Source of the DNA: an uncultured Gammaproteobacteria bacterium
GTDB taxonomy: Bacteria; Patescibacteriota; Patescibacteriia; UBA9934
Assembly: GCA_964355955.1 (NCBI GenBank)
Contig: CAYHFQ010000006.1
Location: 11,633-43,632, forward strand
DNA length: 32,000 nt
Reading direction: 5' to 3'
Shown here: piece by piece, positions 6,798 through 25,230 of the stretch
Position numbering within the stretch: position 1 is the stretch's first letter
Layout: each line of letters opens with the position of its first letter
Position numbers and translations under genes: made by a program
Notes under the pieces: model-generated
Database searches by the model: none
What the model was told of the DNA's origin: nothing
The model's input: the letters and a program-made list of their open reading frames with translations, nothing else

Positions 6798-6823
6798 GTA
6801 GATTGTAGAGAGTAGATAGTAGA
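6798..6823. repeat. Heptad array (GTAGANN)x4 in the ftsW-murG spacer
   Basis: GTAGA at 6798, 6805, 6812 and 6819: exact 7-nt period. Confidence 0.8.
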
Positions 6824-9525: not shown

Positions 9526-10020
9526 CTACTTTTTAAACGTCCAGAAGCGATTAGCTAAGAAATTGTACATCAGGACGGCGATAGACGCAGCTATTTTAGC
9601 AACTGTGAGGCCCCAAGTTGGGATTGGCGCGCCACCTGCAATGAATGAAGAGCTAATCAGTAGCTGGTAGAGAGCAGCCGAGAAGATGGTGAGGAAGAAG
9701 AGGTTGAGCAGCCAACCGCCAGTCGAAACAAGGAGGAATTTAGCGTATTGTTTTTTGCTACCAGCACGATTATCGGCGGCGAAGGTCCAGCGACTATTCC
9801 AGTAATAGTTGTTGGTGACGGCGAGGATGAAGCTGGTGGAGGCGGCGACGGCGTGTAGGGCTGGGGTCGAGCCTAGGAAGGTGGTGGCAATGAGAAAGGT
9901 GAAAAGGCCGACATCGATGAAGGTGCCGCTAATGCCAACTAGGGCGTACTTGAGGAAGACTAGACCGTGCTGTTGCCTTAGTTGTTGCAGTTTCTTTAAG
10001 GCTATTTTTTTGTTTGACAC
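9526..10020 (-). CDS. GtrA-family membrane protein
   Basis: Four TM segments. Motifs YYWNSRWTF and NRFWTF. Confidence 0.85.
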   Translation of the reverse strand: MSNKKIALKKLQQLRQQHGLVFLKYALVGISGTFIDVGLFTFLIATTFLGSTPALHAVAASTSFILAVTNNYYWNSRWTFAADNRAGSKKQYAKFLLVSTGGWLLNLFFLTIFSAALYQLLISSSFIAGGAPIPTWGLTVAKIAASIAVLMYNFLANRFWTFKK

Positions 10021-10023
10021 AGA

Positions 10024-11460: not shown

Positions 11461-11489
11461 AGATTGTGTGAAGTATAGCACGATGACGT

Positions 11490-11636
11490 GAGACTCGGGA
11501 GGGGATCGCCCGCGCCTAAAGCCTCGTCGTCACTTGGCTTTGGCTGGGCACCAGCTCGCGGTTCCGTGTGGTCACGGAACATCGCTCCGCTGTTCGATCC
11601 CCGACATAGGCCAAGCAGTTGGCCTATTCTCGGGCA
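11490..11636. other. GC-rich structured patch containing tRNA-Lys T-arm-derived fragments
   Basis: GAGACTCGGG at 11490-11499. GGGGATCG (11501-11508) is complementary to CGATCCCC (11595-11602). Hairpins: AAAGCC/GGCTTT (11518-11541), GTTCCGTG/CACGGAAC (11561-11580) and ATAGGCCAA/TTGGCCTAT (11606-11627). GTTCGATCCCCG (11592-11603) is identical to the tRNA-Lys T-arm. Confidence 0.4.
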
Positions 11637-11663
11637 CAAAAAAACAGCCTAGGGCTGTTTTTT
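11636..11663. terminator. Bidirectional terminator after tRNA-Lys
   Basis: AAAAAAACAGCC-TAG-GGCTGTTTTTTT. Confidence 0.75.
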
Positions 11664-11738
11664 TGGTGCGCCGAGCGGGGATCGAACCCGCGACCACAGG
11701 CTTAAAAGGCCTTTGCTCTACCACTGAGCTACCAGCGC
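11664..11738 (-). tRNA. tRNA-Lys (anticodon UUU), CCA encoded
   Basis: Manual cloverleaf: GCGCTGG/TA/GCTC-AGTGGTA-GAGC/A/AAGGC-CTTTTAA-GCCTG/TGGTC/GCGGG-TTCGATC-CCCGC/TCGGCGC/A/CCA. Confidence 0.93.
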
Positions 11739-11821: not shown

Positions 11822-13276
11822 ATGGACTTATTAAAACAAGAGAGTTTTCAAGATGCGATTGTGACCGTAATGGGACTGGGGAGATATGGTGGCGGAGGGG
11901 GGTTGAGCGCTACTAAATGGTTACTCCGACATGGGAGCCAGATTGTGATTACGGATTTGAAAGATGCTGCCGAGCTTAAGGAAAGCGTCGACGGCGTGAT
12001 GGAGTGGTTCAATAAGTATCGTGAGCTATTTCCAGATAGGACGATTTATCAGCCGTTGTTTATTTTGGGTCAACACAGGCCGGAGGATTTTTTGAGTGTG
12101 GATTGTGTAGTGCAGTCGCCGGGCGTGCAGAGTGAAGTGGAGTTTGTGCAGCAGGCCAAGGACAAGGGTGTAGCGATAGAGTCGGACGTCAGCCTTTTCT
12201 TCCGGTACTTTCCATTCCCGACGATTGCGGTGACTGGCACGCGGGGCAAGACGACTACTACACGTTTGCTTGGAGCGATGCTGAAGAAGATGGATGAGGG
12301 TGCTGTGATGGCTGGTAATATTGTGATGTCGCCGCTTGAGGTGCTTGATGAATTAATAGCCAAGAAGTCGCCGACGCCGGTGGTGATTGAATTGTCTTCC
12401 TGGATTTTGGAGAGTTTACCGACTGTTTTTTCCGACTTGAAGAAGGGGCCAGATATTGCGGTGATCACGAACGTCTTCCCGGATCACTTGAGCCGTTATG
12501 CAGATTTTGACGCTTATATCGCGTCGAAGGAGATAATGATAGCCAAACAGACGCCAGCCCAGTTTACAGTATTGAATTATGATAACGAGCCACTGCGGAA
12601 GTTGGCGGAGAAAGTGACCGGTAAGCTGTTTTGGTGTTCCGGTACGTCGCAAGAACATGACGGTTGCTATGTAAAAAATGGCCAGGTGGTGTTCCGTCAG
12701 GATAATTTGGAAACGGTTATTTTGCCGGTAGTTGAGCTTGGTTTGCAGAGTCCAGAAAATTTGGAAAATGTGTTGACGGCGGCTTGTGCGGCGATGTTGC
12801 GTGGTGTTAAAGTGGCTGATGTGGCTGCGACGCTCAAAGAATTTGTTGGTGCCAGCGAGCCACAAGAGTTGGTGCGCGAGGTCGACGATATTACTTTTAT
12901 CAACGATACAGTGGCAATTACGCCGAATGCGACAATTGAGGCACTCAAGAAGTTCGGCGGGCACGGCGACGTGGTGTTGATTGCTGGTGGCGAGGACCAG
13001 AGTGTTGATTATAAGGAGTTGATTGAGGCTATTGCTAGGTCATGTAAGCACGTCATCTTGCTGCCTGGCACAGCGTCGGACAGTTTTGAGACGATGTTGC
13101 AGGGTAAAATAGAGACTGAACGGGCACTGGAGATGGCCGACGCGGTAATGAAGGCGAGGGCGGCAGCGGTGCGCGGCACGGTAGTCCTGTTGTCGCCAGC
13201 TGCGCCAGGTGCTCCACTTTTTGCGAATGAGTTTGTACGAGGGGAGCAGTTTAGAGACGCTGTCCGAACCTTATAA
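11822..13276 (+). CDS. murD: UDP-N-acetylmuramoylalanine--D-glutamate ligase
   Basis: Rossmann-like N-terminus VMGLGRYGGG. Mur ligase P-loop VTGTRGKTTTTRL. C-terminal LLSPAAPGAPLF..F..RGEQF. Confidence 0.88.
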   Translation: MDLLKQESFQDAIVTVMGLGRYGGGGGLSATKWLLRHGSQIVITDLKDAAELKESVDGVMEWFNKYRELFPDRTIYQPLFILGQHRPEDFLSVDCVVQSPGVQSEVEFVQQAKDKGVAIESDVSLFFRYFPFPTIAVTGTRGKTTTTRLLGAMLKKMDEGAVMAGNIVMSPLEVLDELIAKKSPTPVVIELSSWILESLPTVFSDLKKGPDIAVITNVFPDHLSRYADFDAYIASKEIMIAKQTPAQFTVLNYDNEPLRKLAEKVTGKLFWCSGTSQEHDGCYVKNGQVVFRQDNLETVILPVVELGLQSPENLENVLTAACAAMLRGVKVADVAATLKEFVGASEPQELVREVDDITFINDTVAITPNATIEALKKFGGHGDVVLIAGGEDQSVDYKELIEAIARSCKHVILLPGTASDSFETMLQGKIETERALEMADAVMKARAAAVRGTVVLLSPAAPGAPLFANEFVRGEQFRDAVRTL

Positions 13277-13550
13277 TAGGCGGGGTTACCACGCCCCGCT
13301 GTATCTGTCTTTGCGAGCGTCAGCGAAGCAATCTTGGCCAGCGATTCGCCGTTCCAGTCAACGCGAGACTCGGGGAGTCCCTTTCTTTCTCCGTCGGGCG
13401 TTTAGACGATCGACAATTACTATTGAATGTGAATTGTCGACATATAAACGCGCGTCCCTCGGTCGACGAAAGGGACATCCCACTCGTCTTCGTTGACTAC
13501 GGGCTCGATAATACGTTTAATCTACCAACTACCGACTACCAACTTTTCTT
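13277..13550 (+). repeat. 274-nt modular GC-rich intergenic element (copy A)
   Basis: Modules AATAGGCGGGGTTACCACGCCCCGC (13275-13299), GTCTTTGCGAGCGT (13307-13320) and GAGACTCGGGG (13365-13375). Hairpins at 13410-13440 and 13454-13476. GATAAT at 13507-13512. Heptads CTACC at 13522, 13529 and 13536. Confidence 0.6.
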
Positions 13551-14876
13551 ATGGGTCTCCTCCATACAATTAAATCCAAAATACCTTCAGCCTGGCTACA
13601 GCCGTACCATTATGTTTTGGCGCGGGGATCGGCCTTGGTTTATGGTAATCCGTCGAATAAGCTGATAGTGATTGGTGTGACGGGCACCAAGGGCAAGAGT
13701 TCCACCACGCAGATGATGGCGCAGTTACTGACGGCGTCGGGTAAAAAAGTGGGCTATACGGGGACGGCCGGGTTTTCGATTGCGGGACAGGTGATTGAGA
13801 ATAGAATGAAGATGACGATGCCGGGGCGGTTTGTGTTGCAACGTTTGTTGCGAGCAATGGTGAAAGCTGGTTGTGAGTATGCGATTATTGAGACGTCGTC
13901 GCAAGGTTTGTTGCAGTATCGTCATTTAGGGATAAATTACGATGTGGCAGTTTTTACTAATTTGAGCCCGGAGCATATTGAAGCGCACGGTGGTTTTGCG
14001 GCCTATCGGGCGGCGAAGAAGTTGTTGTTTACGCACTTATTGATGAGAGTGCACAAGATCATTGACGGTCAGAAAATTGATAAAGTGATTGTCACGAATG
14101 GCGATGATGAGGCGAGTGAGTACTACGCTGATGCGCCGGCGGATAAGAAGTTTAGTTTTTCTTGGCACGGCCAGGCGTCGGCGAACAGAATTGTACCAAC
14201 GAGTGTTATTCGTGATGAAAACGGTTTGCGGATGACGATAGACCATGTCGATTTTGCTGTGCCGCTGGTGGCTGAATTTGAACAACAAAATGCCTTATGT
14301 GCGATTGCTACGCTAGCCTCAGTGGGGATTCCGTTGACGCAGTTGGCTAGGGCGGCCCAGAGTTTGCAGTCTATTCCGGGACGGTTTGAACGGATTGTGG
14401 GTGGTCAGCCGTTTACGGTTATTGTTGACTATGCTTATGAACCGAAAGCGATCGAGACTTTGTTGCGTTCCGTTGAGCCGTTGAAGCCTAAACGAATAAT
14501 TGGCGTGCATGGTTCGGCTGGTGGTGGTAGGGACGTGGCACGCCGCGAAAAGATTGGGCGTTTGGCAGGTGCCAAAGAAGACGTAGTGATTGTGACCAAT
14601 GAGGATCCATACGACGACAATCCGGAGGAGATTGTGCGGATGGTGGCAGACGGGGCGAGGGCGGTGGGGAAGACTGATGGTCAGAATTTGTTCGTGATAA
14701 TGGATAGACAAGTGGCGATAGATAAGGCTATGCAGTTAGCTCAGCCAGGGGACGTGGTACTACTGACCGGTAAAGGATCGGAGCCGGTCATGGCTGTGGC
14801 TGGTGGCGTTAAGCTGCCTTGGGACGATAGAACTGCAGCGCGCAAGGCTTTAGCTAAACTTGGTTACAGCGTATGA
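13551..14876 (+). CDS. murE: Mur ligase, MurE-like, with a very short N-terminal domain
   Basis: P-loop GVTGTKGKSSTT starts at residue 42. Also LTGKGSE and PWDDR near the C-terminus. Located in the dcw context directly after murD. Confidence 0.75.
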   Translation: MGLLHTIKSKIPSAWLQPYHYVLARGSALVYGNPSNKLIVIGVTGTKGKSSTTQMMAQLLTASGKKVGYTGTAGFSIAGQVIENRMKMTMPGRFVLQRLLRAMVKAGCEYAIIETSSQGLLQYRHLGINYDVAVFTNLSPEHIEAHGGFAAYRAAKKLLFTHLLMRVHKIIDGQKIDKVIVTNGDDEASEYYADAPADKKFSFSWHGQASANRIVPTSVIRDENGLRMTIDHVDFAVPLVAEFEQQNALCAIATLASVGIPLTQLARAAQSLQSIPGRFERIVGGQPFTVIVDYAYEPKAIETLLRSVEPLKPKRIIGVHGSAGGGRDVARREKIGRLAGAKEDVVIVTNEDPYDDNPEEIVRMVADGARAVGKTDGQNLFVIMDRQVAIDKAMQLAQPGDVVLLTGKGSEPVMAVAGGVKLPWDDRTAARKALAKLGYSV

Positions 14877-15343
14877 TGAATCATGTTCATTTACCCTTGC
14901 ATGACCGTGAAGAACGCTACGGAATGTTCCGGGCCAGCGGGAGGTCGATAATGCCGAAGATTATATTTGGCGTGATTTGGACGTTGTTACCGTTTTTTTT
15001 GCTGTTTGAGATTTTGCGTTTAGAGTGGTACGGCGTAATTTTGTTAATGGTAGTTGGGATTTCTGGTTTACGTTATTTGTTGGCGGTGCGAGCTGGTTGG
15101 TATGGGAGTGTGTTAGTGGTGACGAATGAGCGAGTGATTGATGTTACTAAAAAAGGTTTTGATAAACCGGTCATGACCAGCGTTGGCTGGAATGAGATGA
15201 AGGCAGTGAAGCTTGGGGTAAGATCGATCATCATCGAAACATGTACGAAAGTACCAATGATGTTGACGCTCACCAACGTCAAGAAGCCTGCTCTCGTCAT
15301 GAACCTTATTTCTGAGGTACAATCTAAGCACGCTAAACGATAA
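14873..15343 (+). CDS. Membrane protein with a bacterial PH (YdbS/YdbT-like) domain
   Basis: ATGA overlap with the upstream stop. Two TM segments, then VVTNERVIDV...TLTNVKKP. Confidence 0.65.
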   Translation: MMNHVHLPLHDREERYGMFRASGRSIMPKIIFGVIWTLLPFFLLFEILRLEWYGVILLMVVGISGLRYLLAVRAGWYGSVLVVTNERVIDVTKKGFDKPVMTSVGWNEMKAVKLGVRSIIIETCTKVPMMLTLTNVKKPALVMNLISEVQSKHAKR

Positions 15344-15345
15344 CT

Positions 15346-15762
15346 ATGCGGACTGAACGACCGTGGCTGCGCTCAATAACTAAGTTCGGCACCGTCTTTG
15401 TGATTGGTGTAGCTGTTTTGTTTTTACTGTGTTTGGGCTTTGGCCGTGAGTATTTGCGTAACCGAGAGATTGAGAGAAATATTCATGATCTACAGGTACA
15501 AAATGACGAATTGTCTGGCAAGCAGCTGGCAGCTTTGAGTGTAATTCAATCATTGTCGAGTGAATATTATTTGGAAGGAGAGGCACGAGCTAAGCGTGGT
15601 TTGGCTAAGCCTGGCGAAGAAGAGGTGGTAATTCAACAGCCGGAAACGACCGATCTAACTATTACAGATACGCGGAACGAGGCCGCCAGTGCCAGTAATT
15701 TAAGACGTTGGTACTATTACTTTTTTGATAAACAGAAGTTCGCTGAACTTCGAGCGCTATGA
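15346..15762 (+). CDS. FtsB/DivIC-like septum formation initiator
   Basis: One TM segment, a coiled coil (REIERNIHDLQVQNDEL), then SEYYLEGEARAKRGLAKPGEEEVVI. Confidence 0.6.
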   Translation: MRTERPWLRSITKFGTVFVIGVAVLFLLCLGFGREYLRNREIERNIHDLQVQNDELSGKQLAALSVIQSLSSEYYLEGEARAKRGLAKPGEEEVVIQQPETTDLTITDTRNEAASASNLRRWYYYFFDKQKFAELRAL

Positions 15763-16550
15763 CAGTAAGGTTGCTTGAGGCAGCGCCACAGGCTGTTGTG
15801 CGTTATAAATTTTCGCGAGTTTTTGTATTTATTGGAGTTTTTGGTTTAGTGGTTGGTTGTGGTGTGGTGAGTATTTTGCTGGCTTTTTGGTATTTTCATG
15901 TGCACAACGGTTTTGGTAAGACATTGGCACAGATTATTCCGGTACCAGCAGCTATCGTTGACGGCAATGTGGTGTGGTATGGCGAGGTAGCCAAGAATGC
16001 CACAGCACTTGAGGACGATGCTGGCCTGAGTAGTGTTGAAGCTATGCACCGTGGATTGTTGCTGGCTGAAAGATATGAGGTGACGCGACAAATCGGCTCG
16101 ACGGTTGGCGTTGATGAGAATGACGATCGGTTGGTTTATGATAGGGCGGTGGAGGAGGCTTTGTTAGCTTCAGACAACTATCAGGGTGAGGCTAGATCGA
16201 GGATTGAAAGATTGCAGGCTAAGCTGACGCAAGGGATTCAGTTTAGGGATTTGGCGACGCAGTACAGCGAAGGGGCCTCGGCCAGTGTTGGTGGCGACTT
16301 GGGTTATGTCGACCCGGCTGCCTTGCCGCCTGATTTGAACAGTGTAGTGCAAGCAATGTTGCCTGGCACGGTTTCCGCGATTACCGAGACACGAACTTCA
16401 TTTTGGTTAGTGCAATGTAATGAGGTTATTGAGAATGGGGATGGCACGAAAAAGGCCTGGTTGAGAGTGATTGAAATTAAAAAGGATTTGTTGGGGCCGA
16501 TCATTGACCGGGCTATGCTGACAGCGAATATTCGGGAGTTTGTGAGGTAA
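15759..16550 (+). CDS. Parvulin-type (PpiC/SurA-like) peptidyl-prolyl isomerase, membrane anchored
   Basis: FRDLATQYSEGASASVGGDLGYVDPAALPPDL is a rotamase motif. 4-nt overlap with the upstream gene. Confidence 0.8.
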   Translation: MTVRLLEAAPQAVVRYKFSRVFVFIGVFGLVVGCGVVSILLAFWYFHVHNGFGKTLAQIIPVPAAIVDGNVVWYGEVAKNATALEDDAGLSSVEAMHRGLLLAERYEVTRQIGSTVGVDENDDRLVYDRAVEEALLASDNYQGEARSRIERLQAKLTQGIQFRDLATQYSEGASASVGGDLGYVDPAALPPDLNSVVQAMLPGTVSAITETRTSFWLVQCNEVIENGDGTKKAWLRVIEIKKDLLGPIIDRAMLTANIREFVR

Positions 16551-16551
16551 C

Positions 16552-16581
16552 AAAAAAGTCGTGCCGGAGCACGATTTTTTT
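16552..16581. terminator. Bidirectional intrinsic terminator
   Basis: AAAAAAGTCGTGC-CGGA-GCACGATTTTTTT. Confidence 0.75.
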
Positions 16582-16656
16582 GGAGCCATTTCCGGGATTC
16601 GGACCCGGGACCTCTGCTTTACGAAAGCATTGCTCTACCAGCTGAGCTAAAATGGC
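16581..16656 (-). tRNA. tRNA-Thr (anticodon CGU), CCA encoded
   Basis: Manual cloverleaf: GCCATTT/TA/GCTC-AGCTGGTA-GAGC/A/ATGCT-TTCGTAA-AGCAG/AGGTC/CCGGG-TCCGAAT-CCCGG/AAATGGC/T/CCA. Confidence 0.9.
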
Positions 16657-16657
16657 A

Positions 16658-16732
16658 TGGAGCGGGAAATGGGGCTCGAACCCACGACCTTCTGCTTGGG
16701 AAGCAGACGTTCTACCACTGAACTATTCCCGC
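16658..16732 (-). tRNA. tRNA-Gly (anticodon CCC), CCA encoded
   Basis: Manual cloverleaf: GCGGGAA/TA/GTTC-AGTGGTA-GAAC/G/TCTGC-TTCCCAA-GCAGA/AGGTC/GTGGG-TTCGAGC-CCCAT/TTCCCGC/T/CCA. Confidence 0.92.
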
Positions 16733-16797
16733 AATGTGGCCGTATAGTATCTAAAACTTGGGTTTTCGGCAAGTGCTAGGAAGGCGATATTCAATCG

Positions 16798-16806
16798 TGC
16801 TATAAT
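16798..16806 (+). promoter_or_regulatory. Extended -10 (TGcTATAAT) placing the predicted +1 on the A of the ftsE ATG
   Basis: TATAAT at 16801-16806, a 6-nt gap GCCTGC, then ATG at 16813. No SD. Confidence 0.55.
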
Positions 16807-16812
16807 GCCTGC

Positions 16813-17496
16813 ATGATTCGTTTTACCAATGTCAATAAAGTCTACAAACCAACAACTCATGCTTTGAGTGGCATTAGTTTTCATGTTAAACCAGGGGAGT
16901 TTGTGTCGATTGTTGGTTCGAGTGGATCGGGCAAGACGACGCTGGCTAAGTTGTTGTTTGCAGAGGAACGGCCGACGAGCGGCAAGATTGTGGTGGGGGA
17001 TTGGGATATTACGGCTATTCATCGGTCAGAAATTCCAACTTTGCGGCGGCAGATTGGGGTAGTGTTTCAAGATTTTAAGTTGCTCGGCCGCAAGACGGTG
17101 TATGAGAATGTGGCTTTTGCGTTAGAAGTTGCAGGGGCGGCAAATGCGAGGATCAAAGAAGTAGTGCCGCAAGTGCTGAAGATTGTGGGCTTGGGCGACA
17201 AGCATGAGCGTTATCCCAACCAGCTTTCAGGCGGTGAACAGCAGCGCGTGAGTATTGCGCGAGCCTTGGTGCACCGGCCCAAGATTATTGTGGCCGACGA
17301 GCCAACTGGTAACCTCGACACCGTCACGTCGCGCGAGATTATTGAGTTACTGAAAAAGATTAACGAGTTTGGGACGACGGTGGTGCTCGTGACGCACGAT
17401 AGGGATATTGTGAATGCGCTCAAAAAGAGGGTGTTGACGATCAACGGTGGCAAGATTGTGAGTGACGTCGAGCATGGGAAGTACATGCTCGGTTAA
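16813..17496 (+). CDS. ftsE: Cell-division ABC ATPase FtsE
   Basis: Walker [10 protein letters not shown], signature LSGGEQQRV, Walker [13 protein letters not shown]. ftsX lies downstream. Confidence 0.9.
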
Positions 17497-17771
17497 AGAT
17501 CTAATCCGTCTTTGCGAGCGTTAGTAATAGGCGGGGTCACCGTCCCCCGCCAGTAGAGACTCGGCTCCACGGCCAAGGCTCGGGGACATTACTTCGCGGG
17601 TCCTGCCGACTGCGGACCCCGTTCGGTGCTCGCAAGCTGCGCGCCGCCCGGGGGCCTCCCTCCGCGTCACCCGCTAAAGGAATTAGCCTGCCTCTCGCTA
17701 CTTGGCCTTACAGGTTCAATAATTCGTCAAATCTACTTTCTACCTTCTACAATCCACTAGCTCACTACTCT
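17497..17771 (+). repeat. 275-nt modular GC-rich intergenic element (copy B)
   Basis: GTCTTTGCGAGCGT at 17508-17521. Hairpin module AATAGGCGGGGTCACCGTCCCCCGCCAG at 17526-17553. GAGACTCGG at 17556-17564. GGGTCC/GGACCC at 17598-17619. AATAAT at 17718-17723. Heptads TCTAC at 17732, 17739 and 17746 (TCCAC at 17753). Confidence 0.6.
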
Positions 17772-18683
17772 ATGCGAACAATCCTCCGCGTCATCAAGTT
17801 TACAGGTCAGAGTCTGTGGCGCAACGCCTGGTTGTCGCTGATAACGCTGACGATTTTTGTGCTGACGCTGATGACGGTCAATGCGGTGTTGTTGGTCAAT
17901 GTGGTGACGAGTAGTGCGATTAAGGCGGTGCAGAATGAGGTACAGGTGGCGGTTTACTTTGTGCCGGGGACGAGTGAAGCCACGGAGAAAGCAGTGCGTG
18001 GCTATCTTCTCGGTTTGAGTCAAGTAAAAACGGTGGAGGTGATTACGGCTGAGCAAGCGTTGCAAAACTTCAGGGATAAGAATGCAGGTGATCCAACTGT
18101 TCTCTCAGCACTCGACGAGGTAGGCGGTAATCCGTTTGGGGACGCGGTGGTGGTGTCGGCCAAGTCGCCTGACGATTTCTCTTTCATTATCGAAGCAATC
18201 AAGACGCCAGAATTCGCGCCGTCAATTAAACAGACGGATTATACGGATTATCAGGTGGTGATTGAAAAGCTAACGTCGTTTACGGATAAGTTACGTTTGG
18301 CTGGCTTGGTGTTGGCTGGTTTCTTTGGGCTCATTTCCATGTTGATTATCTTCAATGCTATTCGTATTGCTATTTACGTCCACAGAGACGAGATTGCGAT
18401 TATGAAGTTGGTAGGGGCGCAGGATTGGTTTATTCGCGCGCCGTTCTTGTTGGAAGCTGTGCTTTTGTCCTTGTTAGCAACGGTAATTATGACGGGTGTG
18501 GTATTGGCGTCGACTAAGGCGCTGGATGTGCCGCTCATGCAATATTTTGGTCAGGCTAACTTGAGTTTGTGGAGTTACTTCACGAGTAACGCTTTAGTTA
18601 TTTTTGGTGGTGAGTTCTTGGGCCTGGCAATCCTCAGCGTGTTGACGACGGTCTTTGCGATTAGGAAACATTTAAGAGTTTAA
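17772..18683 (+). CDS. ftsX: Cell-division permease-like protein FtsX
   Basis: N-terminal TM segment, an extracytoplasmic domain, three C-terminal TM segments, and EIAIMKLVGAQDWFIR. Confidence 0.88.
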   Translation: MRTILRVIKFTGQSLWRNAWLSLITLTIFVLTLMTVNAVLLVNVVTSSAIKAVQNEVQVAVYFVPGTSEATEKAVRGYLLGLSQVKTVEVITAEQALQNFRDKNAGDPTVLSALDEVGGNPFGDAVVVSAKSPDDFSFIIEAIKTPEFAPSIKQTDYTDYQVVIEKLTSFTDKLRLAGLVLAGFFGLISMLIIFNAIRIAIYVHRDEIAIMKLVGAQDWFIRAPFLLEAVLLSLLATVIMTGVVLASTKALDVPLMQYFGQANLSLWSYFTSNALVIFGGEFLGLAILSVLTTVFAIRKHLRV

Positions 18684-20483
18684 GCGGAGCCATTCTTCTT
18701 CTTCGGAAGCGAGGAGAGTGGTGAGTTCTTTGAGTTCACGGTTTTTTTCTGGTGCGTAGTCGGTGGGGTTGTCAAAGAAAAATTGGAGGAGTTCGCTTTT
18801 CTTTTTGTCTTGCTCGGCCATTAATTTTTCTAGTTGAGCGATTTGCCGCTGTTTGGTTTTTTGTTCCAGGCGACGGCGTTGGCGTTCGAGTTCACTTTCA
18901 TTCTGGCGGGGGGCGGTGACCCCGCCTATTGCGCCGTCGACGTCAGCGGTAAGGACTTCTTCTAGGCTGGCGACGTAATCCTCGTAGGTGTCGGGGTAGG
19001 TGCGCACGGTGCCGTTACTTACTTCGAGTAAACGATTGGCCACGGTGTTGACGAAGGTGCGGCTGTGGCTGACGAAGATGACGGTACCGCCGTAGTTGGC
19101 CAGGGCGTCGGCCAAGGCTTCTGAGGTCTCGAAGTCGAGGTGGTTAGTTGGCTCGTCGAGCAGAAGGACGTTGTGGGCGTGCAAAAGAATACCGGCTAAA
19201 CAGAGGCGGGCTTTTTCGCCACCGGACAGAACAGAGACAGTTTTGCTTAAGTCGTCGCGGCGGAAGAGGAAGTTGCCGGCCATGCGGAGGACGTCTTCTT
19301 CTTTAGCATCGACCGGGGCGCAACGGCGGAGGTATTCGTCAACGCGATCGCTGGGGCGGAGGGCGGCTTCCACATGTTGAGCGTAGTAGCCAAAGTCGGC
19401 CTTGTGCCACCAGGCTATTTTGCTATCTTCGCCGAGTGGCGGAAGTTCGCCGGCGAGGGTTTTGAGCAGAGTCGTTTTGCCTTGGCCGTTGTTGCCGAGA
19501 ATGACTACTTTGTCGCCACGAGGAATTTCGAAAGAGATATTGTCGGCGATGACTTTGCTGCCGTAACCGATAGCGAGATGTTCGACGCGGAGAATACTGC
19601 CGGGCTTGGTGACGACGGGCGGGAGGGCAATGCGGGCGGTGGCGAGTTTGTTGTCGATGCTAATAGTGTGGAGTTTAGCAATAGCTTTGAGTTTGGATTG
19701 GGCTTGTTTGGCTTTGCTGGCTTTGTAGCGGAAACGGTCGACAAAGTCTTGCAGATGTTCTTTCTGCGCCATGATCTTCTTGTTAGTGTTTTGGATGTAG
19801 CCGGCCTGTTCTTCTTTGAACGCCAAATAAGATTCAACGTCACCGGGGAAAAAGGTGAGGCGGCCGTGGGCGACTTCCAAGGTGGAGGTGCAGGTGCGTT
19901 TGAGGAATTCGCGGTCGTGGCTAATGACCAGGATGCTGCCGCGGAAGGTTTGCAGGACGTGTTCGAGGAGCAAGAGGGTGGTGAGGTCGAGGTAGTTGGT
20001 TGGTTCGTCGAGTAGGAGAAGATTAGGGTCAGCAAGAAGCATGGCGGTTAGTTTGACGCGCATGCGGTAGCCGCCGGAGAGACTGGCGGCGACGGTGGTG
20101 AGGAGGTCGCGTTTGAGTTGGAAGCGACCGGACATTTTGGCGCATTCCCAGTCGGCTTTACCGCTGACCCGCATGAGGAAGTCGAGGACGGTTTCGGTTG
20201 GCGGGAACTCGGCGTGTTGCTCAACGTAGCCCAAGCGGACGCCGGGGAGGTGTTTGATTTGGCCCGCATCTAGCTCTTCTTGACCCAGGATCATTTTGAA
20301 GAGGGTTGACTTGCCGGCGCCGTTGCGACCAATGACGGCGGTCTTTTGCTCGTCGTTAATGACGATGTTGGCGTCGTCAAAAATGACGGTATTACCGTAT
20401 TTTTTGCTAAGGTCAGTGATTTCTAGAAGTGGGCGAATATGGGCCTGATGATAGCTTAATTGACAAAATTTGGCCAATACCAT
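18672..20483 (-). CDS. ABC-F family ATPase (two ABC cassettes, no TM domain)
   Basis: GRNGAGKST / LSGGYRMRV and GNNGQGKTT / LSGGEKARL. Charged coiled-coil C-terminal tail. 12-nt convergent overlap with ftsX. Confidence 0.9.
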   Translation of the reverse strand: MVLAKFCQLSYHQAHIRPLLEITDLSKKYGNTVIFDDANIVINDEQKTAVIGRNGAGKSTLFKMILGQEELDAGQIKHLPGVRLGYVEQHAEFPPTETVLDFLMRVSGKADWECAKMSGRFQLKRDLLTTVAASLSGGYRMRVKLTAMLLADPNLLLLDEPTNYLDLTTLLLLEHVLQTFRGSILVISHDREFLKRTCTSTLEVAHGRLTFFPGDVESYLAFKEEQAGYIQNTNKKIMAQKEHLQDFVDRFRYKASKAKQAQSKLKAIAKLHTISIDNKLATARIALPPVVTKPGSILRVEHLAIGYGSKVIADNISFEIPRGDKVVILGNNGQGKTTLLKTLAGELPPLGEDSKIAWWHKADFGYYAQHVEAALRPSDRVDEYLRRCAPVDAKEEDVLRMAGNFLFRRDDLSKTVSVLSGGEKARLCLAGILLHAHNVLLLDEPTNHLDFETSEALADALANYGGTVIFVSHSRTFVNTVANRLLEVSNGTVRTYPDTYEDYVASLEEVLTADVDGAIGGVTAPRQNESELERQRRRLEQKTKQRQIAQLEKLMAEQDKKKSELLQFFFDNPTDYAPEKNRELKELTTLLASEEEEWLRLNS

Positions 20484-20488
20484 AGACT
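20460..20488 (+). promoter_or_regulatory. Candidate rpmG promoter
   Basis: TTGACA (20460-20465), a 17-nt spacer, then TAGACT (20483-20488). Confidence 0.4.
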
Positions 20489-20512
20489 TCTGCTATCAAT
20501 TTTTTTTGCCGT

Positions 20513-20668
20513 ATGTCCCAGGAAAATCTCATCAAGCTCGAATGTACTGTTTGTAAGGAGCCAAACTACCGCTCCCTTAAGAACAAGAAGAAGCTCAAGG
20601 AACGCTTGGAAATCAAGAAGTTCTGCCCAACTTGCGGCAAGCACACCATGCACAAGGAGACAAAATAA
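20513..20668 (+). CDS. rpmG: 50S ribosomal protein L33 (zinc-ribbon form)
   Basis: 51 codons, below the ORF-track cutoff: [51 protein letters not shown], with CxxC...CxxC. Confidence 0.9.
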
Positions 20669-20672
20669 GAAC

Positions 20673-20699
20673 AAAATCGACCTATTGCAGGTCGATTTT
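20673..20699. terminator. Bidirectional terminator shared by rpmG and tmk
   Basis: AAAATCGACCT-ATTGC-AGGTCGATTTT followed by a T run. Overlaps the last tmk codons. Confidence 0.7.
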
Positions 20700-21311
20700 T
20701 TCTATTATGCGTTGGAAAACTTCTTCGCGGCTGCCGTTAGCGTCGACGGTTTGCCAGATATTGGTGAATTTGGGGTGATGGCTCAGGAAGTCGTAACCTT
20801 CGCGACAACGGGTGAAAAACTCTACCGGCAGGCTTTCGAACTTGTCACCAGCTGCGTCGCTGGTACGTTTAAGGGCTATGGCTGGATCGAGATCGAGACA
20901 GAAGATGATATTGGGTAAGTATTGCCCGACAGCAGCCTCGTTGATCTTCCAAATCGCGTCAAAGCCGAGTTCACGGCCAAAGCCTTGCCAAGCAACGCTG
21001 GTTAGGAAGCTGCGGTCCGCAATGACAATTCCGCCAGCCTCAAGAACGGGGGCGATAACAGTGCGAAGAGACTGGGCGCGGGCGGCGGCGTAGAGATAGG
21101 CTTCGCAGATGGGGTCCATGGTTTCAGCAAAAGGCGTGCCTTGGACGACTTTGCGAATAGCTTCGGCGATTTCGCTGCCCCCTGGTTCGCGGGTCCAGAT
21201 AACCTGCCGATCGGGGAAACGATTGGTGAGGTAGGCTTGCAGCTGCTTGGATTGCGTGCTTTTGCCGGTTCCCACGACGCCCTCGAAGACGATGTAATAG
21301 CCTTTAGTCAT
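20682..21311 (-). CDS. tmk: Thymidylate kinase
   Basis: P-loop FEGVVGTGKSTQ directly after MTKGYYIV. I prefer the ATG at 21311; the track start at 21368 would lie inside the 56-nt palindrome. Confidence 0.85.
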   Translation of the reverse strand: MTKGYYIVFEGVVGTGKSTQSKQLQAYLTNRFPDRQVIWTREPGGSEIAEAIRKVVQGTPFAETMDPICEAYLYAAARAQSLRTVIAPVLEAGGIVIADRSFLTSVAWQGFGRELGFDAIWKINEAAVGQYLPNIIFCLDLDPAIALKRTSDAAGDKFESLPVEFFTRCREGYDFLSHHPKFTNIWQTVDANGSREEVFQRIIEKIDLQ

Positions 21312-21344
21312 ATGGGTAGAGTTTAGCATGAAATCAAAAAGAGG

Positions 21345-21400
21345 TGTGGATAAGTGGTCTACATTCAACGTATACGTTGAATGTAGACCACTTATCCACA
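21345..21400. repeat. Perfect 56-nt palindrome (28-bp arms); minus-strand terminator-like; arms end in consensus DnaA boxes
   Basis: All 28 pairs checked base by base. TGTGGATAA at 21345-21353 and TTATCCACA at 21392-21400. On the minus strand it is followed by CCTCTTTTTGATTTC. Confidence 0.85.
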
Positions 21401-22000
21401 GGTGAGGCGGCCGGCAGCGATTTCGATGGCGTCGGCGGGGCGGAGGTTTTGACGTTGTTTGGGGGTGAGAATGGCGTGATGTTTAACGTTGACGAGATGA
21501 ACGGGTATATACCAGACTGGTTCAACTGATGTCATCCAGCCCTGTTTGTCGAAACGGGCGAGGTTGACTGGCTTGGTGAAGCTGCGGAGGGTTTTACGGC
21601 CGTCGTTTAAAAAGTATTCATGGAAGTACGACATAACGAGTTCGCGGATGGTGCGGTAGATTGGTTCACGGTAGCGGAGCACGGCGTGATTAGTCTTGGA
21701 AATAGCGCCCCAATGACGGCCACCTTTGAAGACGGCAATGACGTGGTCGAAGTCGTCTTTGCTGCTGGTTAAATCGACGATTAGCGGTTGGTGACCGTGA
21801 AAACGTAAAGCCGCGGCGGCGAGCATGGCGCCTTCCATGCATTGAGCGGTACCGAAACGAATAACTTCTTTAGGTGACAGACAGGTGTCGTTAGCGTCGA
21901 CGAAGTGAAAGGGGAGAGAATTCAAATAATCCTGGATTTTGGCCGGGGTTGAGAGCTTTTTGAGCTGTTTGCGTTCGCTGGCGGTAAAGTCGGAAAACAT
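21392..22000 (-). CDS. Transglutaminase-like cysteine-protease-fold protein (hypothetical)
   Basis: Candidate Cys-His triad context: GTAQCMEGAML ... DFDHVIAVF ... HWGAISKTNH. Confidence 0.6.
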   Translation of the reverse strand: MFSDFTASERKQLKKLSTPAKIQDYLNSLPFHFVDANDTCLSPKEVIRFGTAQCMEGAMLAAAALRFHGHQPLIVDLTSSKDDFDHVIAVFKGGRHWGAISKTNHAVLRYREPIYRTIRELVMSYFHEYFLNDGRKTLRSFTKPVNLARFDKQGWMTSVEPVWYIPVHLVNVKHHAILTPKQRQNLRPADAIEIAAGRLTCG

Positions 22001-22039
22001 AGTGCATTTATGGTATTATTGTAGCAGATAATTACGAAT

Positions 22040-22113
22040 GTAGAATGTAGATGGTAGAGAGTAGAAACTCATAAGCAGAATGAGCCGTCTACCGACTACA
22101 ATCTACATTCTAC
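22040..22113. repeat. Facing heptad arrays (GTAGANN)x4 and (NCTACNN)x4
   Basis: GTAGA at 22040, 22047, 22054 and 22061. CTAC at 22089, 22096, 22103 and 22110. GTAGAATGTAGAT (22040-22052) is the exact complement of 22101-22113. Confidence 0.8.
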
Positions 22114-22131
22114 CAACTATAAATAATTTTT

Positions 22132-22272
22132 ATGGCAGGTCTTAAGTATGTCATCTTTGGTTCTGGCTTGATGATTTCGGCGACTCAGATGGGCGGGGGT
22201 GTTTTCTCGATTATCCTTTTTGTAGTGGGTCTTGTCCTCAGTTTGGCTGGTTTATCGAGCAAAGAGAAATGA
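22132..22272 (+). CDS. 46-aa two-helix membrane peptide
   Basis: MAGLKYVIFGSGLMISATQMGGGVFSIILFVVGLVLSLAGLSSKEK. TATAAA at 22118-22123 ends 8 nt before the ATG. Below the ORF-track cutoff. Confidence 0.4.
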   Translation: MAGLKYVIFGSGLMISATQMGGGVFSIILFVVGLVLSLAGLSSKEK

Positions 22273-22320
22273 TTGGCATAATGTGCTATGCTGTAAATAT
22301 TATTCATTAACTATTCGTCT

Positions 22321-22533
22321 ATGCATGAGTGTTCTGCCAACGGAATGTGTAAGTGTCCACATCACAAGATGGTTCCATTGTGCATCACATTGATTGGTTT
22401 GGCCTTTTTCTTGCAGGCCATCGGTGTGCTCGGTCAACCATTCGTCGACGTTGCTTGGCCGGTCTTGCTGACCTTGATTGGTTTGCAGAAGCTGTCGAGT
22501 GGCATGTGTTCATGTTGCGGCGACAAAAAATAG
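22321..22533 (+). CDS. Cys/His-rich small membrane protein
   Basis: N-terminal HECSANGMCKCPHHK, two TM helices, C-terminal GMCSCCGDKK. Confidence 0.55.
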   Translation: MHECSANGMCKCPHHKMVPLCITLIGLAFFLQAIGVLGQPFVDVAWPVLLTLIGLQKLSSGMCSCCGDKK

Positions 22534-23423
22534 TTTTTGGTGGGGCTTGCTTGATAGTGATAGCGGCTCTTGGCGTAGGGTATTGTGTCGGTGCTAATTG
22601 GCCGAAGCGATACCCTATTGTTGTGGCCGAGGTTGACGACAGGCCGACGTATACGAGTGGTTTGCAAACTAAAGATTTTTTCGATCGGGCTTATAACGAA
22701 GCAACAGGGGAGCCGGTAGCAGGAGCGATTAGCGGACTTTCGGCGCACCATTTACTTATTGGTAGTGATATCGCCACGGTGTTTGAAGATTTAGCGAGCG
22801 ATGATGTTAAGACGGTTGTACTGGTGAGCCCAAATCATTTTAAACGCGGACGGTCGACGGCTCAGGTTTCCAAGGGTCAATGGATGACGCCTTACGGAAC
22901 GGTGGTGACGGATGATGAAGCGGTCGATAAGCTGTTAGCGATGGACTCGATGCTCAAGCAGGAAGAGGCGGCCTATGAGACTGAACATGGAATTTACGGG
23001 CTGACGCCGTTTGTGAAGCGGTCGTTTCCAGGCGCGAAAATCGTTTCGATAATACTTGATGATAGTTTGCCGACGGCTGAGGCTTGGCGGCTTGGGCAGG
23101 AGATTGCGCAGACTTTGCCGGATGCGGTGCTCTTGGCAAGCGTCGACATGACGCATTACCACGACGTCGACTATACAGCTAAGAATGATGTGAAGGTGCT
23201 GCAGCTATTAGCCGAGGCTGGATTGTGTGGTTTGTTGCCCTGTACTGATGAGCTGGATATTGATTCGAATGCTTCGCTGCGAGTGTTGTTTGGTTTTAAC
23301 GCCGAACATGGCACGCAAGAGTGGCATTTGACGCATCACGGCAGCTCGCTCCAGATGGGGGCGACGAAGGATTGGCACGATAATACGAGCCATATTTTGG
23401 GCTACTTTTTACCGAATAAATAA
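22512..23423 (+). CDS. Memo-like (AmmeMemoRadiSam system protein B family) protein with an N-terminal membrane anchor
   Basis: I prefer the start MLRRQKIVFGGACLIVIAALGV at 22512; the track extension from 22353 overlaps the previous gene out of frame. Motifs LVSPNHF, TEHGIYGLTPF, SVDMTHYH and THHGSS. Confidence 0.6.
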   Translation: MLRRQKIVFGGACLIVIAALGVGYCVGANWPKRYPIVVAEVDDRPTYTSGLQTKDFFDRAYNEATGEPVAGAISGLSAHHLLIGSDIATVFEDLASDDVKTVVLVSPNHFKRGRSTAQVSKGQWMTPYGTVVTDDEAVDKLLAMDSMLKQEEAAYETEHGIYGLTPFVKRSFPGAKIVSIILDDSLPTAEAWRLGQEIAQTLPDAVLLASVDMTHYHDVDYTAKNDVKVLQLLAEAGLCGLLPCTDELDIDSNASLRVLFGFNAEHGTQEWHLTHHGSSLQMGATKDWHDNTSHILGYFLPNK

Positions 23424-23445
23424 GCTATACTTACCGTATAAGATA

Positions 23446-25230
23446 ATGAAATTTATGACTGAACTTGAACACGGAGAGGATTGTCAGCATGAGCATGATC
23501 ACGAACATGTCCACGGTATTCCGGTGCACTGGGCTGTGCTTGGTGTTTCCTTCTTTCTGGTTATTTTGGCGACGATGTTCTTGATTGGCATGGCTTTGGG
23601 GCGTGGAGCGCAGTTGGCCGACACGGGTAATCCTTCGGGGGAGACAGAAGGCATCATCAACGAAGTAATAACTCTTGGCCTGCAAGTCACTTGGTTGCCA
23701 GTGGAGCAACATACGCCTTACTCGTTCAATGCTACTTTGCGTACTTGGTTTGATAAAGAAAGTTTAGCTAATGACAATGGACAGGGTATTAGTTATGAAG
23801 CAGTACAAGTTGGCTCGGCAACTCTTGATGGTGCAGAGTATCGGTTAATGGCGGAAACTGTCGGTTTGCCGGCGATGGGCGATGATAGGCGGACATTTTA
23901 TTTACTGGAGCACGCACCTACAAATGGAGAAAAAGTGAAGGAACCAGTACTACTCATGAATTATAATTTCTTTGAGCCAGGCTTTGGCCCGACTGGAAGT
24001 GTGACAAAGGTTGAATGGCCAGTCACGGCAGCTGATGGCTTGGTGGTTAGTTACGCTAAGATTGAGGCGCTCGAAACACAAGGTAACGTGGATGCGACAA
24101 GTCTTGGCTTTGCTAAACTTATTGGCATTGGTATTTTGCCAACGGTTAAAGAGTTGGGTTTGCTTCGACAATATGCGGTGGTAGGAACGTTGGAAAATGG
24201 TAGAGCGTTGCGAGTATACGATGGGACTATTTCTGTTGATAGCGCAGCCTTGAATGAATTGTTTACATTTGGTGATGACGGTCGCGTGATTTGGTATAAT
24301 CTGTCTTTGCCATTTTATACGTTAGCTGACGAGAATATTGATAGCCAGACATTCATTACTTGGAATGATGGAACAGTAGCTACTGAGCAATATACACCGC
24401 AGTTGTCTGGTGGTTGCGGCCATCTGGCAATGACTAATGTTGTTTCTGATCCTCCAGTGTTAGCGGTAGCCGGCTTTGTTACAACGGATCATTCGATGGT
24501 TATTTATGAGCCAGCCGACTTCGCGGATCCTGCGCTGAATGAAGACTTTATGAATTGGCGGTCGCAACATGCTGATGGCACGATGGAGCAGTTCGCTGCA
24601 AGCCATCCGTATTTCTATTTTAAGGACGCTCTCGGCCGTTATGTTAAATTAACTAGAACCGATGTTATTTCACCAGGTGAATGTGGTAAGCCAGTTATCT
24701 ACCTTTATCCGACGAAAACCACGGACATTAATGTGCAGCTGAGTCCAGTTGGTGGGTTTACGAAGACAGAACCGGCCTATGGCGAAGGCTGGAATGTGAC
24801 GGCAAGTCCGGATGGGAGTCTCGTGAATAAGGCTGACGGCGAGACATATCCGTACCTATTTTGGGAGGGTAGGGGCGGGTTCTATGCTGAACCGAAGTAC
24901 TTTGATGTTATCGCTAAGGCTGACGTCGACCAGTATTTGACGATGACGCTCGCGAAGTATGGTTTGAACGCGCAAGAGATGGCTGACTTTAAGGAGTTCT
25001 GGTTGCCACGCATGCAGAGTGCTGATTATTACAAGATTGGTTGGCACGGAACGAGTGTGATGAATGCTTTGGCGCCACTGCACTTGAGCCTGGCTCCGCA
25101 GACGTTGATTCGTATTCTCATGGATTATACGGAGTTATCGAGCCCTGTAGTGGGCAAACCGTTGCCGTCGATTGCCACGCCGGAACGTCAGGGCTTCACG
25201 GTGGTAGAGTGGGGAGGCGTGTTGCGGTAG
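23446..25230 (+). CDS. Hypothetical membrane-anchored protein with a His-rich N-terminus
   Basis: HGEDCQHEHDHEHVHGIPVH, then a TM segment, then a large domain of about 530 aa. The conserved-looking C-terminal part includes CGKPVIYLYP...YPYLFWEG. Confidence 0.6.
   Translation: MKFMTELEHGEDCQHEHDHEHVHGIPVHWAVLGVSFFLVILATMFLIGMALGRGAQLADTGNPSGETEGIINEVITLGLQVTWLPVEQHTPYSFNATLRTWFDKESLANDNGQGISYEAVQVGSATLDGAEYRLMAETVGLPAMGDDRRTFYLLEHAPTNGEKVKEPVLLMNYNFFEPGFGPTGSVTKVEWPVTAADGLVVSYAKIEALETQGNVDATSLGFAKLIGIGILPTVKELGLLRQYAVVGTLENGRALRVYDGTISVDSAALNELFTFGDDGRVIWYNLSLPFYTLADENIDSQTFITWNDGTVATEQYTPQLSGGCGHLAMTNVVSDPPVLAVAGFVTTDHSMVIYEPADFADPALNEDFMNWRSQHADGTMEQFAASHPYFYFKDALGRYVKLTRTDVISPGECGKPVIYLYPTKTTDINVQLSPVGGFTKTEPAYGEGWNVTASPDGSLVNKADGETYPYLFWEGRGGFYAEPKYFDVIAKADVDQYLTMTLAKYGLNAQEMADFKEFWLPRMQSADYYKIGWHGTSVMNALAPLHLSLAPQTLIRILMDYTELSSPVVGKPLPSIATPERQGFTVVEWGGVLR

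Follow-up and report, generated by a model that had tools for sequence, protein, structure and literature searches.

The window analysed here is the whole stretch of DNA, 32,000 nucleotides (nt) long. It contains the two plus-strand genes ftsE and ftsX, separated by a GC-rich spacer of 275 nt (17497-17771) that is assembled from recurring modules and is the element in question. The ftsE gene (16813-17496) encodes an ABC ATPase, as indicated by the open reading frame (ORF) listing and Pfam ABC_tran, and its TAA stop codon (17494-17496) marks the left boundary of the inserted sequence. The right boundary is the ATG of ftsX (17772-18683), identified by the ORF listing and by Pfam FtsX_ECD plus FtsX. 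An original prediction, made from the letters of the window, had singled out this spacer as either a structured RNA or a modular intergenic element.

The longest ORFs in the spacer encode 44 amino acids (aa) on the plus strand and 49 aa on the minus strand, in agreement with the earlier claim that no sense-strand ORF of at least 60 aa lies between the two genes. Neither small ORF has a Pfam hit and copies of the element differ from one another by 1-nt indels; on this sequence evidence the element is therefore non-coding. G+C content reaches 72.5% in 17561-17680, where a hand count of 87/120 was exact on recount, compared with 50% in ftsE and 48.5% in ftsX. This segment is the GC maximum of the window, and 0.09% of 120-nt segments reach the same value. 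The coordinates, G+C count and recurring modules listed beforehand were all correct on re-examination. Two sites, 17508-17521 and 13307-13320, carry GTCTTTGCGAGCGT (0.23 expected). The hairpin AATAGGCGGGGTNACC is found three times, at 13275 and 17526 and in inverted form at 18915-18930, and so is GAGACTCGG, at 11490, 13365 and 17556 (0.10 expected; none of 100 shuffles reaches three). A local GGGTCC/GGACCC hairpin is present at 17598-17619. The heptad tail at the 3' end is likewise real, with CTAC at 17733, 17740 and 17747, and has 2 G in 46 nt, against 31% G across the window.

Comparison with relatives was based on contigs and loci that carry L numbers. The sample of the window's own genome amounts to 44.5 kb in all, out of a genome of ~1.09 Mb, and includes two further contigs: L021 (99.97% identical), which adds 3.9 kb on the window's left, and L024 (100% identical), which adds 8.6 kb on its right. 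A search with the FtsX protein recovered four GTDB genomes of Candidatus Uhrbacteria with FtsX 88-97% identical, bearing out the initial guess that the DNA is from Patescibacteria. Other relatives are L006, a 394-kb JGI contig whose FtsX is 95% identical to that of the window, the Logan contigs L008 (FtsX 95%) and L020 (FtsX 92%), and an outgroup, L009-L012, with FtsX 74% identical. The coding DNA of relatives shows 76-87% alignment identity to the window (82% nucleotide identity for ftsX in L006), and the FtsX N-terminus MRTILRVIKF is kept in all of them.

Alignments of relatives to the window break off exactly at the stop codon of ftsE and pick up again at the start of ftsX. The intervening spacer ranges in length from 129 nt (L003) through 221 nt (L004) and the window's 275 nt to 308 nt (L006), and its content is largely different. 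Elsewhere the two genes nearly touch: the junction reads TAG-T-ATG in L008, and the gap is 4 nt in L020 and 3 nt in the outgroup L009-L012. The claim that ftsE and ftsX are normally adjacent thus holds, with 1-4 nt between them in L008, L020 and the outgroup, and the 275 nt are accordingly an insertion, or a mosaic that expanded locally, and not an ancestral regulatory region. Judged from these alignments, adjacency is the outgroup state and the spacer is a lineage-specific addition. The same alignment break is seen at the GC-rich spacer between two Mur ligase genes, which in L008 is only 22 nt long.

That short Mur-Mur spacer of L008 (L008:2374-2396, ATGTTGCTCGCAACTGACAGTT) holds GCTCGCAAC, a sequence that also makes up the 5' flank of full elements and stands at the beginning of the L004 mur copy (L004:1586-1607). 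Its presence in L008 could reflect a preferred target site or the footprint of a lost element. In the lineage of L003 and L019 (protein P0006), the 129-nt ftsE-ftsX element continues the ftsX reading frame without a stop codon. Gene callers consequently report a 345-aa 'FtsX' that starts 3 nt past ftsE, and this protein is probably an annotation artefact produced by the element.

Within the window, the ftsE-ftsX copy can be read from left to right as a series of modules on the plus strand. The sequence GTCTTTGCGAGCGT at 17508-17521 is the left half of an 'A' module. The full form of this 5' hairpin, GTCTTTGCGAGCGTCAGCGAAGCAATC, occurs at 13307-13333, L021:2961-3004 and L003:1710-1740. The 'A' module, GTCwTTGCGAGCGTCAGCGAAGCAATC, may resemble a short hairpin repeat of many unrelated environmental genomes, where it is often mistranslated as small ORFs. 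A run of stop codons, TAGTAATAG (17522-17530), precedes the GC hairpin (17526-17553), whose stem (GGCGGGG 17530-17536 / CCCCGCC 17545-17551) encloses an 8-nt loop and has a predicted energy of -16 kcal/mol (z -3.9). Other copies of this hairpin are found at 13275-13299 and, on the minus strand, at 18903-18930, the latter in frame inside an ABC-F coding sequence and matching the spacer hairpin at 27 of 28 nt. A conserved 5' block follows, GAGACTCGGCTCCACGGCCAAGGCTCGG (17556-17583), which partly recurs in the enolase copy on L021 and, together with the preceding A, is 28/29 identical to the L006 ftsE-ftsX element.

The GC-rich core (17592-17682) is of a kind termed 'G-type', with homologues in the L004 mur spacer and in the L006 spacer before a 607-aa gene, where the core is split by an insert of ~130 nt. 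Its conserved blocks are CGGGTCCTGCCG (17597-17608), GGTGCTC (17625-17631), TGCGCGCC (17638-17645) and CGCGTCACCCG (17663-17673), and its predicted fold is a stem-loop that pairs 17617-17621 with 17649-17653 and 17624-17629 with 17641-17646. The conserved 3' flank, CTCTCGCTAC...ACAGGTTC (17686-17732), contains a -10-like A-rich box, AATAAT (17718-17723), followed by TCGTCAAAT, and aligns with the flanks of other copies (GCTCGCTCCTACARGGCTCAGGCT..AAAA..GTTTAAA). Last comes the G-poor CTACNNN heptad tail (17733-17771), which has low predicted pairing and reaches the ftsX ATG. The window copy is therefore one in which the GC hairpin interrupts the 'A' module, the 5' flank is missing and the core is G-type.

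Shared k-mers and nhmmer join the GC-rich spacers into one family of mosaics of about 130-350 nt per copy. The matches are nearly all on the same strand, the reverse-strand nhmmer hits being a weak, self-overlapping one in L019 and the ABC-F hairpin. Copies begin with optional 5' modules, namely the 'A' hairpin, the GC hairpin (AATAGGCGGGG...CCCCGCC) just past stop codons, and the block GAGACTCGGCTCyACGGCCAAGGCTCGG. Alignment of copies then gives a 5' flank, TCGCTCGCAACCG, a single GC-rich stem-loop core drawn from several unrelated types (G-, S- and inverted-repeat-type), and a 3' flank, GTCGCTCGCTCCTACArGGCTCaGGCT, followed by the A-rich box and GTTTAAA. Three to five G-poor CTACNNN heptads come next, with about 10-20 nt between them and the ATG.

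The sampled 44.5 kb of the window's genome contains at least four clear copies, which lie upstream of ftsX, a Mur ligase and enolase, and beside dinB; no full copy occurs in the 8.6 kb right of the window. The enolase copy (L021) adjoins the start codon of its gene, and the dinB copy (L021) sits between dinB and a small gene, reversed relative to both. The Mur-Mur copy (13277-13550, plus strand) consists of the hairpin, the 'A' module, a long, imperfect inverted-repeat core (13355-13495), the 3' flank and heptads, and folds with z -5.0. The ftsE-ftsX copy matches it over nearly its full length (nhmmer E 1.5e-4, query positions 8-258).

The search for modules and homologues that had been proposed for the spacer, run with nhmmer on the window and related loci, found further copies at other, non-orthologous loci in four related genomes. 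In L006 the ftsE-ftsX copy matches 2280-2579 and 9799-10122, and its match to the L006 ftsE-ftsX copy has E 3e-6. The second region falls at the 353-nt spacer before the 607-aa gene, which is matched in two pieces; the orthologous site of the window (23424-23445) comprises merely 22 nt. Besides the 28/29 block, two further pieces of the window copy match L006 copies at 40/44 and 24/24 positions, and two of the three pieces lie at another locus. Upstream of its ftsX, L002 has the right arm of an inverted-repeat core; in the window, this core stands before the Mur ligase. No element was found by nhmmer in L008, L009 or L020.

Three independent assemblies break off within copies: DOZH01000013.1, JAGVNL010000023.1 and the 394-kb JGI contig. 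A metagenome scan for the G-core motif CGCGTCACCCGN{0,1}CTANAGGAA gave only chance hits, on four unrelated contigs of high GC, and missed the JGI contig known to carry the motif, and the scan thus gives no information on copy number. A scan of viral contigs with the S-core loop motif gave 0 hits, and blastn found no match for the spacer among phages or for the enolase copy among plasmids.

The spacer is thus very likely one copy of a lineage-restricted, multi-copy, modular intergenic repeat, situated at ftsE-ftsX in one Candidatus Uhrbacteria subclade. The family would be a new, previously undescribed one of a known, BOX- or BIME-like kind of element; searchable literature held no relevant report of interspersed repeats in Patescibacteria, which is absence of evidence only. 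Of the two options in the original prediction, the BOX/REP-like one stood, with dispersed modules at non-orthologous loci, and a dedicated RNA of the ftsEX operon did not, given the lack of an Rfam match, the folding scores and the absence of the spacer from relatives.

The structural evidence lies in the comparison of cores. Taken whole, the spacer has no more folding stability than dinucleotide-shuffled sequence (plus strand z -0.66, minus strand z -0.85). The S-type core was compared in five distinct copies, of which two belong to the window's genome but lie beyond the window. Both partners have changed in 8 of its 15 base pairs, pairing is intact in 94.7% of cells, and one-sided variation occurs in no pair. 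Sliding the 3' partner by 1-3 columns lowers pairing to at most 41%. The 24-nt loop is almost invariant, and the four unpaired cells are all A·C. A covariance model of the S-core matched nothing beyond the copies from which it was built and their duplicates in L019 and L022; without a match inside the window, the ftsE-ftsX copy is one that lacks an S-core. The G-core stem-loop is predicted alike in the L004 copy, with C-G swapped to A-T and C-G to T-A, and the 3' strand of its outer stem is offset by one nt between the window and L004. This stem appears to be kept by compensatory change as well, with thinner support from two to three copies. Taken together, these alignments indicate that core stems are maintained by compensatory substitutions between copies. 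The stems may act in RNA or as hairpins in DNA. In most copies the fold of the minus strand is 5-30 kcal/mol more stable than that of the plus strand, which with the A·C asymmetry hints at a minus-strand role, too weakly to be used.

The possible long-range helix between 17511-17520 and 17627-17636 fared less well. The 10-bp complementarity with two G-U pairs exists, but the helix is absent from minimum-energy and centroid folds. Its partners are the recurrent motifs TTGCGAGCG and GCTCGCAA, which face each other also in the L006 and dinB copies; neither motif varies. Moreover, the helix clashes with the local stem 17617-17653, which has compensatory changes.

The heptad tail leads to the question of how genes start in this genome. 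Upstream regions of about 30 window genes mostly lack a Shine-Dalgarno site, and many genes have TGCTATAAT or TGCTATACT 6-14 nt before the ATG, a sequence pattern that points to mRNAs with no leader or a very short one. Inside operons, a gene overlaps its upstream neighbour or directly adjoins it. Strong Shine-Dalgarno sites are few, one example being AAGGAGG before a small ORF near 2549. In the heptad tail, TTCTACAAT (17745-17753) matches the TGCTATAAT-type -10 motif of this genome at 7 of 9 positions and stands 18 nt before the ftsX ATG, an arrangement comparable with TGCTACAAT-N17-ATG at the gene at 21392-22000. The spacer has a single, weak promoter-like match, TCGTCA-18-TACAAT (17724-17753), inside the tail. 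No terminator-like site occurs in the 275 nt, and the GC hairpins are without U-tracts. Missing local structure permits initiation independent of a Shine-Dalgarno site, an established principle. Predicted pairing at the ATG is 0.13-0.37 in copies with heptads, 0.48-0.51 in those without and 0.55-0.68 in element bodies, and the low values of the heptad copies fit this principle.

Tandem CTACNNN arrays are confined to the spacer-bearing subclade, where they comprise 3-5 units and vary in copy number between relatives. In the window they lie at 6798-6822 (minus strand), 13522-13539, 17733-17750, 22040-22064 (minus strand) and 22089-22113, and the own-genome extensions add L021 ~340-370 and L024 1962-1996 and 3701-3735. 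Six of these eight arrays end no more than 45 nt upstream of a same-strand start codon, and one stands alone, in the 58-nt spacer that precedes a sortase gene. The CTACAAT unit is similar to the -10 motif of the genome, and one locus of L004 has a variant array of period 8, CTACCCAG. The two arrays at 22040-22113, which lie between divergent genes, point at each other and form an inverted repeat of 26 nt.

These features suggest how an inserted copy might affect the operon. The insertion would abolish the stop/start translational coupling of ftsX to ftsE: with 275 nt in between, ftsX would be unable to re-initiate from the ftsE stop codon. It would instead start de novo on the unstructured heptad leader, which lacks a Shine-Dalgarno site, on a transcript supplied by read-through or by a weak -10-like element, either AATAAT (17718-17723) or TTCTACAAT (17745-17753). 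The GC-rich hairpins would be selfish or neutral DNA of the REP/BOX type. REP sequences have roles in operons, where they stabilise mRNA and cause attenuation, for example at malE-malF; by analogy, the GC hairpins may stabilise or attenuate the upstream ftsE message.

Several observations weigh against the interpretation of the spacer as a mobile, selfish or neutral repeat, or limit it. The -10-like boxes (AATAAT and TTCTACAAT) are weak and are not conserved among copies, so read-through from ftsE is equally possible. In a single-gene tree, which is poorly resolved, the spacer-less L008 and L020 are nested among spacer-bearing genomes; the pattern at ftsE-ftsX may consequently reflect gain or precise loss, and repeated gain, loss or recombination may be responsible for the nesting. 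No transposase, terminal inverted repeats or target-site duplication was found, the ORFs scanned in the window having no transposase-like Pfam domain, and mobility, through transposition or recombination, is suggested by distribution only. A figure of ~100 copies per genome would be an extrapolation from 44.5 kb of ~1.09 Mb. Finally, compensatory evolution, conservation above that of coding DNA and orientation towards start codons (modules are nearly always oriented with the downstream gene) also fit a cassette selected by the host.

Portable, structure-constrained cassettes, in which a covarying stem-loop and a G-less leader of tandem -10-like heptamers give Shine-Dalgarno-independent starts and possibly promoters, are nonetheless an unlikely account. 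If they were real, their spread would rewire operons such as ftsEX, with heptad copy number tuning expression, and they would be important to a Patescibacteria genome whose genes otherwise depend on leaderless mRNAs and on stop/start coupling. Marginally less likely again is a related idea, in which the copies are not selfish DNA but a host-selected portable expression cassette or regulon signal, made of a stem-loop (RNA or DNA), an A-rich box and a G-less heptad leader, through which ftsX, the Mur ligase, divIC and enolase get Shine-Dalgarno-independent, separately controlled expression. Most copies are indeed co-oriented with the downstream gene and end at its ATG, as do six of eight heptad arrays to within 45 nt on the same strand; pairing at the ATG is lowered in heptad copies, S-core loops are invariant while stems covary, and module pieces are better conserved than coding DNA. 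Yet every site examined is filled in some very close relatives and empty in others, cores have been exchanged between loci, the genes served differ between genomes, the dinB copy is reversed relative to both neighbouring genes, and a hairpin module lies inside a coding sequence.

The remaining explanations treat the spacer as particular to this locus, and comparative data are less kind to them. A dedicated cis-regulatory RNA of the ftsEX operon, acting in the plus-strand transcript as a riboswitch, attenuator or processing site, is very improbable. It would account for the high GC content, for several local hairpins, including the stable one at 17530-17551, and for the G-U pairs of the long-range helix, which work only in plus-strand RNA; that helix, however, is the one missing from predicted folds and in conflict with a covarying local stem. 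Rfam 15 has no hit at E<=10 on either strand of the spacer or of 17400-17850, which agrees with the earlier statement that no known RNA family matches, and the z of -0.66 for the whole spacer is unremarkable. Relatives with FtsX 92-97% identical have no spacer or an unrelated one (it is absent in L008, L020 and L009, and its content differs in L003, L004 and L006), and the same modules stand upstream of unrelated genes, so that the comparative sequence data largely refute an RNA of this kind. The chance that the spacer is an independent small RNA gene or a diverged housekeeping RNA is smaller still: high G+C in a genome of 50% GC is typical of structured RNA genes, but no Rfam family fits either strand, there is no terminator-like site and only the weak promoter-like match within the heptad tail, and the sequence is multi-copy, variable in module content and absent from close relatives. 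With the gathering threshold and with E<=10, Rfam searches of the window and five related loci found only tRNAs, and those of the enolase copy and the 11440-11680 region gave chance-level hits or nothing. Least probable of all is an assembly artefact or chimeric join. Repeats of the family do break related assemblies, but an independent ENA contig is 100% identical to the window over 12,799 nt across the spacer (12349-25147), and the exact FtsX protein is encoded on three contigs, one of them 1.09 Mb long.

Among known systems, the closest likeness to the modular repeat is with the pneumococcal BOX elements (boxA-boxBn-boxC), which are probably parasitic and likely affect the expression of co-transcribed genes (Croucher et al. 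2011, PMC3049150). Each is a short, modular and non-coding interspersed repeat whose ends are conserved and whose middle varies, with extensive secondary structure; both occur in one species group only, are co-transcribed with their neighbours and break or modify gene arrangements. The middle of BOX is a variable number of boxB units, whereas the present element has one of several unrelated stem-loop cores. Unlike BOX, it also has a G-poor 3' heptad tract that abuts a start codon, and its host is a Patescibacteria cell with a genome of ~1 Mb. No sequence relationship was detected, and the likeness is one of architecture, as BOX modules were not compared by sequence.

Repetitive extragenic palindromic (REP) sequences of Proteobacteria and the bacterial interspersed mosaic elements (BIMEs) that they form are similar in being short, GC-rich extragenic palindromes arranged in mosaics between co-directional genes, often just past stop codons and sometimes inside genes, with stems kept by compensatory change (PMC2817692, PMC3733652). 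The hairpin at 17526-17553, with its 7-bp GC stem and 8-nt loop, is an imperfect palindrome in the 20-40-bp range of REPs. A GTAG/CGTC tag is absent from its three copies, which share a 5' AATA and have the 3' flanks AGTAG, TGTAT and AGAAT. CGTC REP families have stems of 8-9 bp that start with A-T pairs, and loops of 4-5 nt (PMC3733652). Membership of the tagged REPs was rejected, as there is no conserved tag and the stem and loop geometry is unlike that of the CGTC families. REPs also occur in more than 100 copies per genome and are associated with a RAYT transposase gene. BIMEs were rejected because the modules are collinear, on the same strand and without alternating orientation.

Correia elements of Neisseria and miniature inverted-repeat transposable elements (MITEs) have terminal inverted repeats and a target-site duplication. 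They share with the present element the form of non-autonomous intergenic repeats of ~100-300 nt that bring promoter-like sequences and RNA hairpins. The conserved end motifs found here, GTCGCTCGCAAC... and GTCGCTCGCTCC..., are in contrast direct repeats, and comparison of filled and empty sites at the ftsE-ftsX, mur-mur and Memo-607-aa junctions gave no target-site duplication; a MITE or Correia-type element was rejected on both counts. The mycobacterial interspersed repetitive units (MIRUs) are 40-100-bp tandem units with small coupled ORFs. They too lie between operon genes, oriented with the operon and touching the flanking stop and start codons, but the present element is a non-coding mosaic. 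Rickettsia palindromic elements (RPE; PMC3733652) can place a palindromic module in frame in a protein gene, as happens at 18903-18930. Unlike RPE, merely the 28-nt hairpin module is intragenic here, and full elements are strictly intergenic. TIGR arrays occur in Patescibacteria, and a TIGR-Tas array was rejected: the neighbouring ORFs scanned have no Nop-domain hit, and conserved loops with varying stems are the opposite of guide arrays.

Patescibacteria genomes of about 1 Mb are usually regarded as streamlined. If the spacer is a copy of a modular repeat, as argued here, this subclade carries roughly one mosaic of 130-350 nt per 11 kb in the sampled region. The repeats split essential genes that are normally coupled (ftsE/ftsX and two Mur ligases) and break metagenome assemblies at these points. 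Recognition of the family would explain both the contig ends and the over-extended 345-aa 'FtsX' call. The family could serve as a marker of recent genome dynamics among closely related Uhrbacteria, and as a natural test case of how expression is re-established, mostly without Shine-Dalgarno sites, for a gene cut from its upstream partner.

Other features of the window touch on the family less directly. The inverted hairpin copy at 18903-18930 (minus strand) is not intergenic but lies in frame in the ABC-F coding sequence (18672-20483), in sense orientation. It encodes IGGVTAPRQ in a variable linker before the C-terminal coiled coil and adds two codons relative to L002-L004, which have no hairpin; L001 and L006 have half of the module at the same place. 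A second GC-rich region, of 159 nt (11482-11640), separates a tRNA-Lys terminator from the beginning of a PMT_2 glycosyltransferase gene, the two being minus-strand features. It has a multi-branch fold far more stable than those of shuffled sequences (z -4.5 on the plus strand, -4.9 on the minus strand) and carries GAGACTCGGG; nhmmer shows it to have no homology with the mosaic family, and no Rfam family matches it. Read along the plus strand, it would stop at a bidirectional terminator (11639-11663).

A perfect, loopless palindrome of 28+28 nt occupies 21345-21400, where a 202-aa gene ends and the thymidylate kinase gene begins, and it overlaps both. Each outer end is formed by a perfect DnaA box, TGTGGATAA and TTATCCACA respectively. 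The palindrome is 96% conserved in L004 and is present in L002 with compensatory changes in both arms, and the Logan contig behind L024 ends inside it.

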